A stretch of DNA of 64,000 nt from Clostridia bacterium (GTDB lineage: Bacteria > Bacillota > Clostridia > TANB77 > CAG-465). Under the pieces are notes generated by a model that did no database searches, had not been told where the DNA came from, and saw nothing but the letters and a program-made list of their open reading frames with translations. A program made the translations under genes and the position numbers. Below are positions 58,400 to 64,000 of the stretch, one piece after another. The stretch lies in NCBI GenBank assembly GCA_017549425.1, contig JAFYUV010000017.1, positions 136,750 through 200,749 on the forward strand, in the 5' to 3' direction. How positions within the stretch are numbered: position 1 is the stretch's first letter; the number at the start of each line of letters is the position of its first letter.

Positions 58400-58428
58400 T
58401 TGACACTATAATTTATTTGCTATATAAT
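58400..58428 (+). promoter_or_regulatory. Consensus sigma-A promoter for P5-P6
   Basis: TTGACA, 17 nt, TATAAT. Confidence 0.55.
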
Positions 58429-58462
58429 AAAGCTGAATAATTATGTTATTTGGGGGGATAAT

Positions 58463-59869: not shown

Positions 59870-62800
59870 TGAAGAAGAAATTGTTATTACTAATATTTAC
59901 AATATTTACTTTTGTAAATATATTCAACATACATCAATTAAATGCGGTGGGAATAGTATACCAAGGTATTGCTAATTATGAGTCTGGGGCTCCAACAATT
60001 TTATATAGAACATCAGCAAAACCTTCAACAGAAAATATAATAATGTTGAAGAACAGAGGAGTTGCATATAACACTTGGGATTATTCAAACATTAATATAA
60101 AGGTTGCTTCTACACCGAAAACATATGAAGCTAGATATTTGATATTCACTAAGAATACTATTGGAGATTATAGTAATGCTACCACTACAAAAGGTTCTAA
60201 TGCTGGGTATGGATATCTACAATATAGCGGAGATTTGGGACTAAAGGAAGATAAAAATTTAGGAGAATTTTTTCAAGATAATGGAGAGACAATAGTTCTA
60301 AAATCTTCTGAGGGAACTGTTAAATATATAGACAAAAATGAAGACATAGATAAATGGTTATTTGATTATTCATCTATAACTAATAATAACTATACTGTTG
60401 TATCCTATGATTCATCAAAGTGGAATGACTATTTAGAAAATATATATGGATATGGAACAGAAGAACCATTGAATTCATTTGTGAACGTATTTAAAGATGG
60501 AAGTCTAATTAAATGGACTTCAATAGCAAATAATAATATTAACAATAACTGGGTATATACCAAAAATATAACTGGCAAAACATTACCAGGAGTACCATAT
60601 ACAGAATATAGAATGATGTTGTTTAATCCGTCTGTAGTTGGCAATACAAGTAGCGTATTAGAAAATTCGGTTTATGTAGCAGATATGATTTTAGACAAAA
60701 ACGTAACAGCAGATTTACTTAGTTTAGGAAAGAAAGAAGTGCTTGTAAGCACATTATCTCAAACTTTGACAGATCAAGGAGAGGCTTGGCTTGTTACTCC
60801 AGGAAGCTTTTTACATGGCTTAACAGCAAATTATACAAGTTATAACTGGTCAAATATGACTAGAGGAGTAGATGCTGATAACGATCCTTTTGCGCTAGGT
60901 GCTGGTCTTAACTTATGGGATAATACTTTACAACTTCCAACAGGAGGAACAACTAATAGTGGTAAAAAGACAATAGTAGTGAATCATATAAATGCAGATG
61001 GGTACGGAAATATTGACAGGACAGATTATTATTCAGTATATATAACAGAAAATGGAATATCTATTTTGTCTGATTCTAATACAAAAATAATTGAAGACTC
61101 TAAGTACCATGAAATGTATTCTTTTTCTCCTGAAATACAATCTCTTACTATAAAGACTCTTAAACAATTAGATAGTTCTAAAAATTGGTATGATGAATAC
61201 AACAAGATATTAAAAAGTGGAGAATATGACGTTCTTGGCTGGCAAAGATATTCAACAAACGATGAAGATGAATTTATTAATTTTATGTATGGAAGTTCTA
61301 GCCTTAGCAATTTGCATAAAACAGAAAATGTGGTTGTAAAAGGAAATGATATAGAAGATAAATATATATGTATTAATATTTTTTATAAAGCTAAGGAAGC
61401 AGAACCTAAAGTAGAAAATTATACTCTTATCGAAAGACACGTTCTTGTAGATAATAATTTAAATGAAAAACAAATTTTAAAAACAATAGCTTATACGTTA
61501 GCATCAAATTCCACGAAGACTCTAAGCAAATTAAATAATAGTTATAAATATATTGGTTATGAAGTCAAAGGTGACAGTGGAAATTATTATAGTAATACTA
61601 TAAGTTATACATGGAATTCAGCTGAAGGAAATGTAACGGTTACATTTAAGTATAAAGAAAATGAGATTGTTATAAACCAAAAAAACATTCCAGATTTAAA
61701 TTTAAATGGATATCTAGAAATTCATTCAGCATTAGGTTTTAACAAAACGTGTGATGATATAGAATCTGTTCCGGGCAATGCTATAGATGGAAGTAATGAC
61801 ATAGAAATAGGTATAACTGGTATTCCGTCATATATATTAGGTGGAGTTGAAGTTAAAGATGTTACAAGAAGTGGGACATTAACATATAAAATAAATATGA
61901 ATTTTGCTAATAAAACTACCACATGGACTATTGAAGTACCTTACACTGCTTCAAGGATAGCTATTGAAAACATATTGATTTATAGGTTATCAAATCCTAC
62001 AATATATAACACAGATAAAGGATATGATACTTCTGGAAGTTCAGTTTTCGATTGGACTAGTAAGACTATAACAAACCCAAATAGCTTAACATATAATAAA
62101 AAATCTGGAAGTAACGATGCTAAATATATGGTTTATAGCCCAAGCGCTATTTATAATTATTATTATAATTATAATAATAAAGAGGCTCATAGAGTGAGCC
62201 CTAGATATTATAAAACTTGGTCAGATGGCTATTTTTATGATAATTGGACAGATGGTTTTGGGAATGCTTATACATATTATCTACCTGAAATTGATATAAC
62301 AGTTGATGGTAATACTTTAAGCGAATACAGCTATATTGAAAATTTGTTCAATAACAATAATAAAACTGTTAGCATAAATATAGATTTGTTAAATACAAAT
62401 GTATATGAAGCGATAGACTTTAATGAAGATAATTATTTAGATGAAGATGATCTTACAGAAATAGCTGACGGGTATGATATAAATTGGTATACAAAAGTTA
62501 ATGGTGTTAATGATTTAATTGATATTTTAGATGCTGCTATAAATGCTTTGCATAATGCGTGGGATGCTCTAGATGATGCTGATAGAGCTTTAGAACAAGC
62601 AGAAGCTAACAGAATAGCTAAACCCAATAAGCCAACTGAGCCTACTGAAAGTGACTATGATATAGATGATTATAGAGCAGAACTACAAAGAAATGCTTTT
62701 GAAAAAGTGTATTATTATTTTAACAATGGGAAAAAAAATAGTACAATGTCTAAAGAAGAATTTGATGTCTATTATAATCATTATGATGAAACAGAAACTG

Positions 62801-64000
62801 ATGGATTCAAGTTAAATCAGACAAGTTTAGAAGAAACGTGGTCAGACCTAAAAACTAAGTTGAACAGTAAAAATTATAGCAGTTATGATTTTTTAAGATT
62901 TAATTATGATGCTGATGGTTTTATTCAGATAACAGGCTATCCTAATTCTAATGGTGGTACATATGAAGATAATTGTAAACCATATTATAATTGTTTAGAT
63001 AGAGTTGAATATGAATATATAAAAAATACTAGTATATATACGGCAAAGTACAATGATACCGAAAGCTGGTCAGCTGTAAGTTCGAGCAAGTACGCAGATG
63101 ACCATAAAAAGTATGTTAATGCAAAAGAGAAATATGACACTGCTTTGAGAGAGTGGGAAAAAGAGGATGAAGCCTACAGAAGCCAATTGGAATTATATGA
63201 TGAATATGAAGAAGCGTATACAATAGCAAATACTAATTATCAAACTGCATTAAATACATATAATTCTGAACTAGAAGCATATAATACTGCTTTAAATAAA
63301 CTACAATCATTAGCGAAAAGAGAAAATTATGCTCGTGAGTATTATGATGAAGCTGTAGCTTTGCAAGAAACATATAATACATATTCTAAGAAAACAGCAA
63401 AGCAAATGGCAGAAATTTTTAATTTACAAATTTATTTAGAGTCTACTAATGATGATGCAAGAGTAGGAAGTAATGATATATATAATAAGAGCAGTTTTGA
63501 TATGTCTAAGAATGGTACATTTACTATTTCTGACTTATTAGCACCATATGGAACAAAAGTATCAGAAGGAGAAGTTAAAGTTGAAACAGATTATCCTAGA
63601 GTAAATAAGACGCTATATACTGATGGATTTGATTTTATGAGTTATATATCATCATATGAAAATAATGAATTTGAAATACCAAAAACCAAATTAAACGGAG
63701 AGAGAATATTAGCTGGATATATAAAATATAAAATCGATACTTCATCAGATGTAGGTGTTGGACAAGATTTTAATGATAATGTATATTATGATAGTAGTAG
63801 AGCAAAACAAAATGTATTTAAAGTAAATAGTAATAGAATAATTGAAAAAAACTACGGAGCTTCTAAAAACAATAGTCAGAAATTTAATATCTACACTCCT
63901 TTAGTAGTTGCAGCTGATGTGGAATTAGAACAAGATGTTGTTGATCAGACAGTTAATAATCCATATAGTACAACTGATGTTATACAAGCTAACTCAGCAT
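59869..64000 (+). CDS. Giant secreted protein P6 (more than 1377 aa; 3' end lies outside the window) with Asn/Tyr-rich regions and a long coiled-coil segment
   Basis: ATG overlaps the P5 stop (TAATG); signal peptide MKKKLLLLIFTIFTFVNIFNIHQLNA; the frame stays open to the window edge; the only minus-strand ORFs in the region are short ones of 62-93 aa. Confidence 0.6.
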   Translation, partial: MKKKLLLLIFTIFTFVNIFNIHQLNAVGIVYQGIANYESGAPTILYRTSAKPSTENIIMLKNRGVAYNTWDYSNINIKVASTPKTYEARYLIFTKNTIGDYSNATTTKGSNAGYGYLQYSGDLGLKEDKNLGEFFQDNGETIVLKSSEGTVKYIDKNEDIDKWLFDYSSITNNNYTVVSYDSSKWNDYLENIYGYGTEEPLNSFVNVFKDGSLIKWTSIANNNINNNWVYTKNITGKTLPGVPYTEYRMMLFNPSVVGNTSSVLENSVYVADMILDKNVTADLLSLGKKEVLVSTLSQTLTDQGEAWLVTPGSFLHGLTANYTSYNWSNMTRGVDADNDPFALGAGLNLWDNTLQLPTGGTTNSGKKTIVVNHINADGYGNIDRTDYYSVYITENGISILSDSNTKIIEDSKYHEMYSFSPEIQSLTIKTLKQLDSSKNWYDEYNKILKSGEYDVLGWQRYSTNDEDEFINFMYGSSSLSNLHKTENVVVKGNDIEDKYICINIFYKAKEAEPKVENYTLIERHVLVDNNLNEKQILKTIAYTLASNSTKTLSKLNNSYKYIGYEVKGDSGNYYSNTISYTWNSAEGNVTVTFKYKENEIVINQKNIPDLNLNGYLEIHSALGFNKTCDDIESVPGNAIDGSNDIEIGITGIPSYILGGVEVKDVTRSGTLTYKINMNFANKTTTWTIEVPYTASRIAIENILIYRLSNPTIYNTDKGYDTSGSSVFDWTSKTITNPNSLTYNKKSGSNDAKYMVYSPSAIYNYYYNYNNKEAHRVSPRYYKTWSDGYFYDNWTDGFGNAYTYYLPEIDITVDGNTLSEYSYIENLFNNNNKTVSINIDLLNTNVYEAIDFNEDNYLDEDDLTEIADGYDINWYTKVNGVNDLIDILDAAINALHNAWDALDDADRALEQAEANRIAKPNKPTEPTESDYDIDDYRAELQRNAFEKVYYYFNNGKKNSTMSKEEFDVYYNHYDETETDGFKLNQTSLEETWSDLKTKLNSKNYSSYDFLRFNYDADGFIQITGYPNSNGGTYEDNCKPYYNCLDRVEYEYIKNTSIYTAKYNDTESWSAVSSSKYADDHKKYVNAKEKYDTALREWEKEDEAYRSQLELYDEYEEAYTIANTNYQTALNTYNSELEAYNTALNKLQSLAKRENYAREYYDEAVALQETYNTYSKKTAKQMAEIFNLQIYLESTNDDARVGSNDIYNKSSFDMSKNGTFTISDLLAPYGTKVSEGEVKVETDYPRVNKTLYTDGFDFMSYISSYENNEFEIPKTKLNGERILAGYIKYKIDTSSDVGVGQDFNDNVYYDSSRAKQNVFKVNSNRIIEKNYGASKNNSQKFNIYTPLVVAADVELEQDVVDQTVNNPYSTTDVIQANSA

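Follow-up and report, generated by a model that had tools for sequence, protein, structure and literature searches.

Comparative analysis suggests that P5 and P6, two overlapping genes at the 3′ end of the window (the whole 64-kb stretch of DNA analysed here), form the end module of a widespread and so far unstudied pilus-like cluster of gut Clostridia and Bacillus-group plasmids. In the preferred reading, to which a probability of about 0.5 is assigned, the pair is a distal accessory module of a divergent Tad-like filament system, in which P5 would anchor a giant surface adhesin or fibre, P6, at the wall beside the pilin-like proteins. No description of the P5–P6 module was found in the literature searched. 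The features of the locus are listed below.

52609–53043, + strand: P1, ORF of 144 aa, pilin-like; N-terminus MDYITSKVFVIAVG...
53056–53508, + strand: P2, ORF of 150 aa, second pilin-like protein; MESPASEALIIGMN...
53509–56949, + strand: P3, 1146 aa; conserved pilin-like N-terminal module of ~180 aa, then a variable region
56978–58288, + strand: P4, 436 aa; N-terminal TM helix and C-terminal His/Cys motif
58300–58341, + strand: intrinsic terminator after P4 (A-run, 9-bp stem, 11-nt loop, T-run)
58400–58428, + strand: sigma-70-type promoter of P5–P6 (TTGACA, 17 nt, TATAAT)
58463–59869, + strand: P5, GTG start, 468 aa, type II membrane protein
59869–59946, + strand: P6 signal peptide, aa 1–26, predicted cleavage after LNA; MKKKLLLLIFTIFTFVNIFNIHQLNA followed by VG
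59947–62982, + strand: P6 lineage-specific N-terminal region, aa 27–1038, Asn/Tyr-rich
62983–63465, + strand: P6 helical heptad-like segment, aa 1039–1199, 161 residues without Gly or Pro
63607–64000, + strand: start of the P6 conserved C-terminal module (aa 1247–1862), with its first 131 residues inside the window

Conserved organization of the P1–P6 locus

Judged from their arrangement across relatives, P1–P4, P5 and P6 constitute one conserved gene set. Wherever a related locus offers sufficient sequence, P1, P2, the N-terminal 180 aa of P3, P4, P5 and the C-terminal module of P6 occur in one order and on one strand. Specifically, the P1/P3N/P4 genes lead into P5 in 22/22 of the loci found through P4 in species-representative genomes, the P6 C-terminal module is present in every P4-found locus with enough downstream sequence, and the gene immediately ahead of P5 or of the SLH partner is always P4. 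The earlier note had proposed that P5–P6 and P1–P4 belong to a single envelope or appendage locus, and this conserved synteny strongly supports that proposal. The P5–P6 pair is moreover duplicated as a pair in one relative (L016).

Most relatives carry a full array on one strand, which runs from a CpaB-like gene through two ParA/TadZ-like genes, a CpaF-like ATPase, a 685-aa membrane protein and tandem pilin-like genes to the P1–P4/P5/P6 set. The ATPase and 685-aa membrane protein genes lie directly upstream of the pilin-like genes in 20/22 species-representative loci. Long metagenome loci found through the ATPase show the ATPase–platform pair followed by P1- and P3N-type genes in every case (48/48), with P4 as well in 45 of the 48, and the CpaB-like gene and two ParA-like genes stand 5′ of the ATPase in all five loci read upstream. 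On the Bacillales megaplasmids pBpOF4-01 and pBsph, the order is a SAF protein, two small proteins, an "ATPase, T2SS/T4P/T4SS family", a 684-aa membrane protein, pilin-like genes, a P3-like gene, a P4-like gene, an SLH protein and a DUF5704 protein.

The gene directly 5′ of the P6-type gene encodes a P5 homologue, a secreted SLH protein or a Cu_amine_oxidN1 protein. The SLH partner occurs in pBsph and in pBpOF4-01, where it lies 12 bp before the P6-type gene, and the Cu_amine_oxidN1 partner lies 6 bp before it in Paenibacillus polymyxa. ATPase-bearing loci of a clade at ~60% identity lack both P5 and P6, and ATPase and platform genes are absent in cis from the window and its four closest relatives; the P5–P6 module is thus not universal, nor is its dependence on the motor demonstrable.

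At least 274 loci of the system's ATPase were confirmed in gut metagenomes, many of them from human gut, and the cluster is also found on large plasmids of Paenibacillus, Lysinibacillus and Clostridium botulinum/argentinense. Its non-motor proteins have no curated Pfam or NCBIfam match except dockerin (some P3-like proteins), SLH, Cu_amine_oxidN1 and DUF5704/Big_2 (Bacillales counterparts of P5/P6). The cluster represents a large annotation gap and is common in gut metagenomes.

Pilin-like proteins P1–P4

P1 contains one N-terminal hydrophobic helix (residues 3–33) and has no Pfam or NCBIfam match; its profile matches P1-type genes 3′ of the ATPase and platform genes in related loci, while the P2 profile identifies the same position in 16 related loci. 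The P1 and P2 types have the N-terminal motif [KRQE]-A-[ILF]-x-[IT]-G in common, and all of them carry a leader of 6–9 residues ending in [KRQE]-A and followed by a hydrophobic helix. They display neither a Gly(-1)/Glu(+5) signature nor a Pfam pilin, Flp or TadE match, and their leader appears class-III-like at the level of the motif only. The first-position pilin-type genes of full systems begin with MDNAQKAIMIGVGLFITIII, an N-terminus that is near-identical across species, and are present in tandem copies. The window holds the second pilin-like sub-cluster only (P1, P2, P3 and P4), without the MDNAQKA-type candidate major-pilin gene.

The N-terminal module of P3 is homologous to P3-type genes in all related loci and, over 170–180 aa, to a 184-aa protein of pBpOF4-01 (E 3e-13). 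Outside this module the length varies, with orthologues of 609–1146 aa, and the variable region of P3 contains tandem modules of ~131 aa (internal repeat score 146; shuffled sequences average 39, sd 8). Among the non-motor proteins of the system P4 is the best conserved, showing 59–62% identity to orthologues, 36–38% to other gut Clostridia, and homology to a 330-aa protein of pBpOF4-01 (E 1e-21).

Transcription signals and the P5/P6 junction

Downstream of P4, the terminator hairpin at 58307–58335 and its T-run fold with -17.1 kcal/mol (z = -5.3), a value equalled by 0/200 shuffles; a consensus terminator scan makes no call at this site because the loop is 11 nt. The promoter that follows is the sole 12/12 match in 52300–64000, and an identical 12/12 promoter lies 5′ of P5 in four relatives (L008, L010, L012 and L020), whose P5 proteins are ~50% identical. 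Since P5 in full systems begins within tens of bases of P4, the separate P5–P6 transcription unit is a lineage feature. Additionally, the last A of the P5 stop codon TAA (59867–59869) is the first base of the P6 ATG (59869–59871), and a ribosome-binding site, GAGGTG, is positioned 5 nt 5′ of this start. The junction GGAGGTGAAATAATG is kept in three orthologous loci, TAATG overlap and ribosome-binding site included. Together, these data bear out two earlier claims, namely that a terminator and a consensus promoter precede P5 and that the P5 stop overlaps the P6 start.

P5 is a membrane protein with a modelled SLH-like and NTF2-like outer part

P5 is a bitopic membrane protein. Its Lys-rich cytoplasmic tail (aa 1–43) contains 19 K/R and 2 D/E residues, and a single hydrophobic segment lies inside residues 39–71, corresponding to a TM helix at ~aa 45–67; the basic tail and single TM helix described from the first reading of the sequence are thereby recovered. 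The outer part is modelled as an SLH-fold triple repeat (~aa 90–245) and an NTF2-like domain (~aa 300–468). The SLH likeness, a three-fold helical arrangement in the predicted structure, appears at fold level alone: Pfam SLH (PF00395) matches 0/16 members of the P5 family at E<=1, and the hhalign comparison of P5 with the plasmid SLH partners is insignificant. Repeat 1 has lost the TRAE motif, and repeats 2 and 3 carry (S/N)-K-x-E in its place, the corresponding positions of the window P5 reading SEEA, SKVE and NKGE. A paralogue encoded in relatives, PX, does match Pfam SLH, at 28.4 bits (cut-off 20.8). No gene resembling csaB, which would be expected alongside SLH anchors that bind pyruvylated secondary cell-wall polymer, was detected among the scanned window ORFs.

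P6 is a giant protein with a variable N-terminal region and a conserved C-terminal module

P6 is a Sec-exported protein of 1862 aa that lacks an anchoring domain of its own. Its reading frame is open from 59869 to the window end (1377 codons), and its completion on an identical metagenome contig yields 1862 aa followed by a hairpin. The signal peptide, whose cleavage site was placed by eye, includes a hydrophobic segment at residues 3–24, and orthologues show an equivalent cleavage region between ...TSTVQA and VD. Asn and Tyr account for 10.8% and 9.0% of the protein overall and jointly for ~30% of residues 701–850. Within the helical segment, the heptad signal across aa 1071–1175 lies above the 99th percentile of shuffles, as measured by a crude periodicity test rather than a dedicated coiled-coil predictor. 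The description given in the earlier note, of a protein of at least 1377 residues that ends beyond the window and combines a classical signal peptide, Asn/Tyr-rich segments and a coiled coil near 63100–63400, therefore holds. A known toxin or S-layer/CWB2 identity, which that note had named as evidence against its proposal, was not found: the complete 1862-aa protein matches no Pfam family, no toxin, S-layer, CWB2, SLH or LPXTG domain and no PDB sequence, and its C-terminus, ...DHRASNDFN, has no hydrophobic tail.

The N-terminal 1240 aa of P6 are fast-evolving and the C-terminal 600-aa beta-sandwich module is conserved, orthologues being 27–31% identical over the former and 45% identical over the latter. 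An exhaustive phmmer search with aa 1–1200 against 1.84 billion representatives retrieved five relatives, all orthologue-like and of the same clade, and the N-terminal region has no match in Pfam or PDB. The C-terminal module, the most conserved part of the protein and located mostly beyond the window, is 34% identical to the homologue P0002, and its profile finds 97 proteins. It is predicted to be beta-rich by AlphaFold2 (pLDDT 79.3, pTM 0.78), with structure matches to generic beta-sandwiches only. As to the putative fibre-like character of P6 named in the earlier note, structural support comprises one helical stretch and beta-sandwich modules only. Word-indexed searching returned one P6 homologue, and neighbourhood-based retrieval combined with the C-terminal-module profile returned ~100, a caution on the choice of search method.

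Motor genes and Tad-like identity

The 64-kb window contains no homologue of the system's ATPase or platform protein detectable by tblastn and HMM searches. A canonical PilB/PilT/PilC set at window positions 147–3013 is unrelated to the P1–P6 system. The closest solved relative of the system's ATPase is CpaF (E 2e-7), and its match to Pfam T2SSE is sub-threshold (E about 1e-3). Neither Pfam nor PDB yields a match for the 685-aa membrane protein of relatives, which shows no detectable T2SSF homology and, by hhalign, no significant similarity to the PilC of the window. No prepilin peptidase gene was seen in any locus of the system. At roughly even odds, homology and gene order would make the P1–P6 systems of Firmicutes Tad-like (type IVc-like) filament systems of a divergent kind, and the window holds the distal half of one.

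Proposed mechanism and alternative readings

In the proposed mechanism, P5 would reside in the membrane with its Lys-rich tail inside, its SLH-like repeats gripping wall polymer and its NTF2-like domain docking the conserved C-terminal module of P6, while translational coupling would supply P5 and P6 in a fixed ratio. Because P5 would both hold the wall and dock P6, the latter would be displayed as a long variable adhesin or fibre beside or atop the pilin-like P1–P4 assembly. In the window's lineage the pair would be driven by its own strong sigma-A-type promoter, and, as the motor genes are not adjacent, the motor would be encoded elsewhere or lost. In uncultured gut Clostridia, attachment to hosts or particles could plausibly depend on such a surface appendage with its hypervariable 200-kDa protein.

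A bolder and doubtful extension holds that the window's lineage kept the distal half only (P1–P4, the SLH/NTF2 anchor and P6), enlarged P3 and P6 and lost its dedicated motor, the whole cluster being an undescribed type IV filament class of monoderms. P1–P4 would then either stand as a static stub rooted in the membrane or be powered by the unrelated PilB/PilT/PilC machine 55 kb away, with the sole job of holding a 200-kDa variable adhesin through the wall. Such a machine class would be marked by an ATPase that scores below the family threshold, a 685-aa platform of non-T2SSF type, pilin-like proteins that bear dockerin, and a docking protein anchored at the wall and paired with a giant cargo.

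The strict location of P5/P6 at the end of the pilin-like gene array, together with the wall-binding type of domain always present in the partner of P6, would also suit components of the filament machine itself, such as a wall-spanning collar or conduit, or a priming or tip complex, needed for assembly through a thick wall or S-layer; P6 would then be no adhesin. This is judged unlikely, as the ~60% clade carries the same system without either gene, the P6 N-terminal 1240 aa are hypervariable and lineage-specific, which is unusual for a core machine part, and the pair persists in the window's lineage without a cis motor. Quite unlikely, too, is a model after type II secretion, in which P1–P4 would build a short pseudopilus and P6, exported by Sec, would be the cargo that it drives across the wall, with P5 as wall-side receptor or release factor. 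The Sec signal and missing anchor of P6 and the restriction of the window to the second pilin-like sub-cluster are in its favour, but the secretion ATPase of the system is not in cis, the conserved C-terminal module of P6 shows no link with a secretion signal, and we know of no established T2SS-like protein export in monoderms.

P5–P6 could instead be an independent cell-surface pair, S-layer-like or adhesin, whose adjacency to P1–P4 is meaningless, a reading that draws on the promoter of the pair and the terminator upstream, and on P. polymyxa, where the DUF5704 gene and its partner lie amid unrelated GH127, RGI lyase and nif genes and neither a pilin-like gene nor an ATPase gene occurs within 10 kb. 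The conservation of P4 adjacency from gut Clostridia to Bacillales plasmids, despite ~25% protein identity, renders this very unlikely. Finally, P4-like genes on 33 large Firmicute plasmids raise the idea that the system would serve mating-pair formation, bringing cells into contact for the transfer of DNA, and that P6 would be the aggregation adhesin; this is highly improbable, since gut Clostridia carry the locus on the chromosome, with serS, spoIID and mreB-type housekeeping genes as neighbours, no relaxase, VirB4 or VirD4 is encoded in it, and all 33 plasmids are typed non-mobilizable.

Comparison with known systems

Tad/Flp (type IVc) systems comprise CpaB/RcpC, TadZ/CpaE, TadA/CpaF, TadB/C, Flp pilin and TadE/F/G pseudopilins, and full relatives of the locus run in the same order: first a bitopic SAF/CpaB-like protein, next two ParA-like proteins and a CpaF-like ATPase, then a membrane protein, small pilin-like genes in tandem and finally larger proteins whose N-terminus is pilin-like. 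The system differs in its sub-threshold ATPase match to T2SSE, the lack of a detectable T2SSF domain in the 685-aa protein, the lack of Flp/TadE model matches among its pilin-like proteins and of a cis prepilin peptidase, and the addition of an SLH/NTF2 protein and a giant secreted protein; in the window the distal genes stand alone.

Large tip adhesins of the PilY1/PilC type, with a conserved C-terminal domain, are encoded alongside minor pilins, and the proposed display of P6 runs parallel to theirs. They share with P6 a Sec signal instead of a pilin leader, a length of about 1000 aa or more, a variable N-terminus preceding a conserved C-terminal domain, and a gene that ends a minor-pilin-like cluster. 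P6 nevertheless has no sequence or fold relation to them: Pfam assigns no PilY1/PilC family, and its C-terminal module is predicted to be beta-rich. To our knowledge, the PilY1 paradigm includes no dedicated wall-anchored partner such as P5.

Compared with the SLH anchors Sap of Bacillus anthracis and SpaA of Paenibacillus, P5 lacks a sequence-level SLH signal, has the TRAE Arg replaced by Lys or lost, and is additionally anchored in the membrane through its N-terminal TM helix. NTF2 folds are very widespread, and against the NTF2-like domain of P5 enzymes score as well as VirB8-like proteins. Unlike the loci of the VirB8-like NTF2 proteins TraM and TraH of pIP501, PrgL and OrfG, that of P5 contains no VirB4, VirD4 or VirB6; with VirB4 and VirD4 absent, assignment of P5 as a VirB8-like part of type IV secretion was rejected.

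The DUF5704 proteins of Paenibacillus, Alkalihalophilus, Lysinibacillus and Cytobacillus, for which the literature searched holds no mention of DUF5704, are homologous to the P6 module over their C-terminal ~550 aa (profile E 1e-21 to 1e-11; BLASTP 3e-26), the matches lying on the C-terminal side of the Pfam domain. Neither Big_2 nor the 185-aa Pfam DUF5704 domain, which precedes the common module (4e-80 in P0103 and 6e-56 in P0102), is detected in full-length P6, DUF5704 having been tested at E<=1, and P6 is ~750 aa longer and contains a coiled-coil segment. These proteins occupy the same position as P6, after a wall-binding partner, and as the Bacillales plasmid versions reside in cultivable, genetically tractable strains, the function of a P5/P6-type pair is directly testable there.

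Conservation of the gene set and its motor

The pilin-like genes P1–P4, the gene for the lysine-tailed type II membrane protein P5 and that for the giant secreted protein P6 belong together as a single conserved set of genes, which is linked to a CpaF-like motor. Synteny of P1, P2, P3N (the conserved N-terminal module of P3, 180 aa), P4, P5 and the C-terminal module of P6 extends far outside the lineage of the window. A P4 search of species-representative genomes recovered 22 loci, all from uncultured gut Clostridia, 20 of which form one same-strand array that begins with an ATPase (630 aa), a membrane protein (685 aa, the platform) and several P1-type genes, and continues with P3N, P1, (P2), P3N, P4, P5 (sometimes twice) and the P6 module. 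The closest solved relative of the ATPase is CpaF, the Tad motor. Scanning metagenomes with the ATPase yielded at least 274 confirmed loci; in 48 of 48 long ones P1- and P3N-type genes come after the ATPase–platform pair, and 45 of these have P4 as well. In each of the five metagenome loci read upstream of the ATPase, the genes in front of it encode a bitopic CpaB-like protein and two ParA/TadZ-like proteins. The same gene order, at ~25–30% identity, occurs on the Bacillales megaplasmids pBpOF4-01 and pBsph; one of its genes is annotated in RefSeq as encoding a SAF-domain protein and another an "ATPase, T2SS/T4P/T4SS family", and the order ends with the genes for an SLH and a DUF5704 protein. 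The conserved cluster encodes a divergent type IV filament system of the Tad-like kind, and the synteny running from gut Clostridia to Bacillales plasmids strongly supports the proposal of the earlier note that P1–P4 and P5–P6 make up a single envelope or appendage locus. Comparisons of the platform with PilC and of the ATPase with PilT by hhalign, using single-sequence templates, were insignificant.

Among full systems, in which ATPase and platform lie upstream of the pilin-like genes, the ATPase is 81–87% identical between species, and the P4 of these species is just 35–40% identical to that of the window. The Clostridia version of the ATPase (locus L023, 1473-3368; locus L025, 420-2309) starts with a hydrophobic stretch, MSVAFILNIILIILLIAFVV...; to judge from this sequence, the enzyme may carry its own membrane anchor.

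What lies beside serS in the window and in its four closest relatives is limited to P1-P2-P3-P4-(PX)-P5-P6-P7; the 64 kb and the flanks at hand contain neither the ATPase nor the platform nor any gene of the MDNAQKA type. A split motor locus was sought for this lineage, and all 48 long ATPase loci carry P1- and P3N-type genes in cis. P7 is an orphan of 308 aa with an N-terminal hydrophobic helix, encoded 3' of the P6 terminator and downstream of the window (L001, 17040-18032) behind its own perfect TTGACA-17-TATAAT promoter, read by eye; it has no Pfam match and is conserved (53% identity) only within this lineage (L010, L012, L020). In place of P7, locus L008 (17051-20017) carries two 72-aa genes, 85% identical to each other, with two proteins encoded between them: one of 345 aa, whose N-terminus (MKTYKKGISLIVLVITVIVLAILATT...) looks like that of a classical pilin, and one of 333 aa.

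Pilin-like features of P1–P4

None of P1–P6 gave a significant match in Pfam or NCBIfam, and the P4 and P3N profiles matched no PDB sequence. All P1/P2-type proteins possess a short leader ending in [KRQE]-A. The candidate major pilin is encoded by the first-position pilin-type genes of full systems, which occur as tandem copies and whose N-terminus, MDNAQKAIMIGVGLFITIII..., is near-identical across species. The variable part of P3 (window 53509-56949) contains at least two tandem modules of ~131 aa at residues ~480–760; these were missed by BLAST self-comparison and emerged from targeted pairwise alignment (score 146; shuffled sequences averaged 39, sd 8, and reached at most 89). P3 orthologues range from 609 to 1146 aa. 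DUF4320, a family that occurs in Tad-like loci of Firmicutes, turned up most often among the weak matches of P3N, but in only 3 of 31 members and with a best E of 0.13, and this lead was dropped.

P3-type proteins of other gut Clostridia have a type I dockerin at the C-terminus (Pfam E 1e-11 to 4e-21) and are encoded at:

L015, 3893-4876 and 5842-7125: dockerin-bearing P3-type genes
L023, 6641-7657 and 8678-9967: dockerin-bearing P3-type genes

The pairing of a pilin-like N-terminus with a dockerin hints at cohesin-bearing partners that could be attached to the filament. Clostridial P4 (window 56978-58288) carries invariant H389, C394, C431, C434 and P436 within residues 389–436; this C-terminal pattern (...YH.S..C..Y......GF..C..C.P), absent from Bacillales P4-like proteins, resembles a motif for metal binding or disulfide formation and presumably lies outside the cell.

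The P5–P6 module

The distal part of the locus comprises the following features:

Hairpin 3' of P4: folding energy -17.1 kcal/mol, z -5.3
58400-58428: promoter TTGACA-17-TATAAT, the only perfect match in 11.7 kb
58463-59869, plus strand: P5, GTG start, 468 aa
59869 to window end, plus strand: P6, open for 1377 codons

The hairpin and the perfect promoter correspond to the terminator and consensus promoter that the earlier note placed before P5, and the TAATG overlap that it described is present at 59869, where the P5 stop and the P6 start have one base in common. Both the promoter and the junction GGAGGTGAAATAATG are kept in relatives whose P5 identity is only ~50%; hence they are functional signals rather than chance, and those at the junction are signals for translational coupling.

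P5 has the architecture described in the earlier note, a basic tail followed by one membrane helix, with 19 Lys/Arg vs 2 Asp/Glu in residues 1–43 and a single hydrophobic helix next; its 15 homologues (35–93% identity) all share a variable Lys-rich tail, one TM helix and the anticipated ectodomain of ~400 aa. P5 is a bitopic protein, and its modelled ectodomain adopts SLH and NTF2 folds. Where SLH repeats have TRAE, the P5 alignment shows (S/N)-K-x-E in repeats 2 and 3, with K227 and G228 invariant and E229 nearly invariant in repeat 3. The ectodomain has no Pfam SLH match, P5 matched nothing in Pfam, NCBIfam or, also as a profile, PDB sequences, and hhalign comparison with the plasmid SLH partners, using single-sequence templates, was insignificant. 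Between P4 and P5, close relatives encode in opposite orientation a P5 paralogue of ~655 aa, PX, which has a signal peptide, matches Pfam SLH significantly and is 31–35% identical to the P5 ectodomain in its C-terminal half.

P6 begins with a typical signal peptide, and its completion was achieved through identical contigs from ruminant-gut metagenomes, recovered by exact-protein look-up of P5: the full protein has 1862 aa and ends ...DHRASNDFN, followed by a hairpin. The identical protein is listed at NCBI as hypothetical, under locus tag IKV94_04530 of a MAG named "Clostridia bacterium". Its reported Asn/Tyr richness amounts to 10.8% Asn and 9.0% Tyr, and the heptad-like stretch is seen at aa 1039–1199 (window 62983-63465), 161 residues without Gly or Pro whose periodicity lies above the null. 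Full-length P6 gave nothing significant in Pfam or NCBIfam and nothing in a PDB sequence search, BLAST self-comparison revealed no internal repeats, and no wall-anchoring, membrane-anchoring or toxin domain was found; the complete protein does not turn out to be a known toxin or S-layer/CWB2 protein, the outcome that would have told against an appendage locus.

A word-indexed search with the full-length query returned only P6 itself and one distant protein; this apparent orphan status was a sensitivity artefact, since orthologues of 1817–1847 aa turned up through P5 neighbourhoods. These are 45% identical to P6 over the last ~730 aa and 27–31% over the first 727, with the middle stretch spanned by no local alignment. 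An exhaustive HMMER search of 1.84 billion representatives gave only five relatives of residues 1–1200, all from this clade. P6 is a substrate of the Sec pathway that lacks an anchor; its C-terminal module is conserved, and its N-terminal part evolves fast.

A profile of aa 1247–1862 matched 97 proteins, ~80 of them unannotated, 900–1175 aa long and from Clostridia MAGs, the remainder (E 1e-21 to 1e-11) being "DUF5704 domain-containing" proteins of Paenibacillus, Alkalihalophilus and Cytobacillus. The region in common lies C-terminal of the Pfam DUF5704 domain, which is undetectable in P6; the literature searched contained no paper on DUF5704. The model of the module is confident (pLDDT 79.3, pTM 0.78) and adopts a beta-rich fold, and fold searches returned only generic beta-sandwich folds as PDB neighbours.

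Genomic surroundings

Elsewhere in the window lie chromosomal genes for housekeeping and sporulation (spoIIP, spoVAD, gpr, rny, relA, recJ, ftsY, serS). A canonical type IVa pilus motor set at the window start (147-3013) has no sequence relationship with the ATPase and platform of the P1–P6-type system, and no pilin gene follows it on the plus strand. A serine recombinase split into three consecutive ORFs adjoins ftsY, followed by a Bro-N fragment and a minus-strand M15 peptidase; this region (45516-48252) probably represents the decayed remains of a prophage or integrative element. Surface-polymer functions are possible for an ORF of 839 aa with a Wzy_C domain and for a translocase-like and a bactofilin gene near it.

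147-569: PilB-like ATPase, C-terminal zinc-finger part, apparently cut by the window edge
594-1682: PilT-like ATPase (T2SSE, E 7e-34)
1682-3013: PilC-like platform (T2SSF, E 4e-34)
16595-17449: undecaprenyl-phosphate translocase-like gene
17418-18611: bactofilin gene
21103-23622: Wzy_C (O-antigen ligase-like) ORF
45516-45983, 45964-46317, 46292-46909: Resolvase, Recombinase and Zn_ribbon_recom parts of the broken recombinase

Proposed role and alternatives

We propose that P5 would anchor P6 to the wall through the conserved end of P6, next to the pilin-like proteins, and that the variable 1240-aa part of P6, including a helical stalk of ~160 residues, would be displayed as an adhesin or fibre. 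A clade whose ATPase is ~60% identical lacks both P5 and P6, which marks the pair as an accessory module. It always occurs as a pair: what precedes a P6-type gene encodes either a P5 homologue or, in other cases, a protein of the SLH or Cu_amine_oxidN1 type, and locus L016 duplicates the P5–P6 pair as a unit. The pair might instead be a part of the machine, a collar or tip, or P6 might be cargo exported by a pseudopilus. A pair unrelated to P1–P4, with its own promoter, would have to be squared with the shared synteny, and a role in mating contact is a further alternative, P4-like genes being found on 33 large plasmids.

Three other readings were rejected. For a polymorphic toxin the wrong end of P6 is conserved, and neither a toxin nor an immunity gene is present; a prophage tail fibre is disfavoured because ftsY, engB and serS separate the prophage remnant (45.5-48.3 kb) from the locus; and a sporulation-specific appendage does not fit a promoter of consensus sigma-A type.

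Comparison with known systems

Several defining features of known families fail or are undetectable here: the ATPase of the system matches T2SSE only below threshold, neither T2SSF nor Flp/TadE is detected in the system, and Pfam SLH in P5 and the DUF5704 domain in P6 likewise escape detection. The system would work in the manner of a Tad pilus, to which a wall-anchored adhesin module has been appended.
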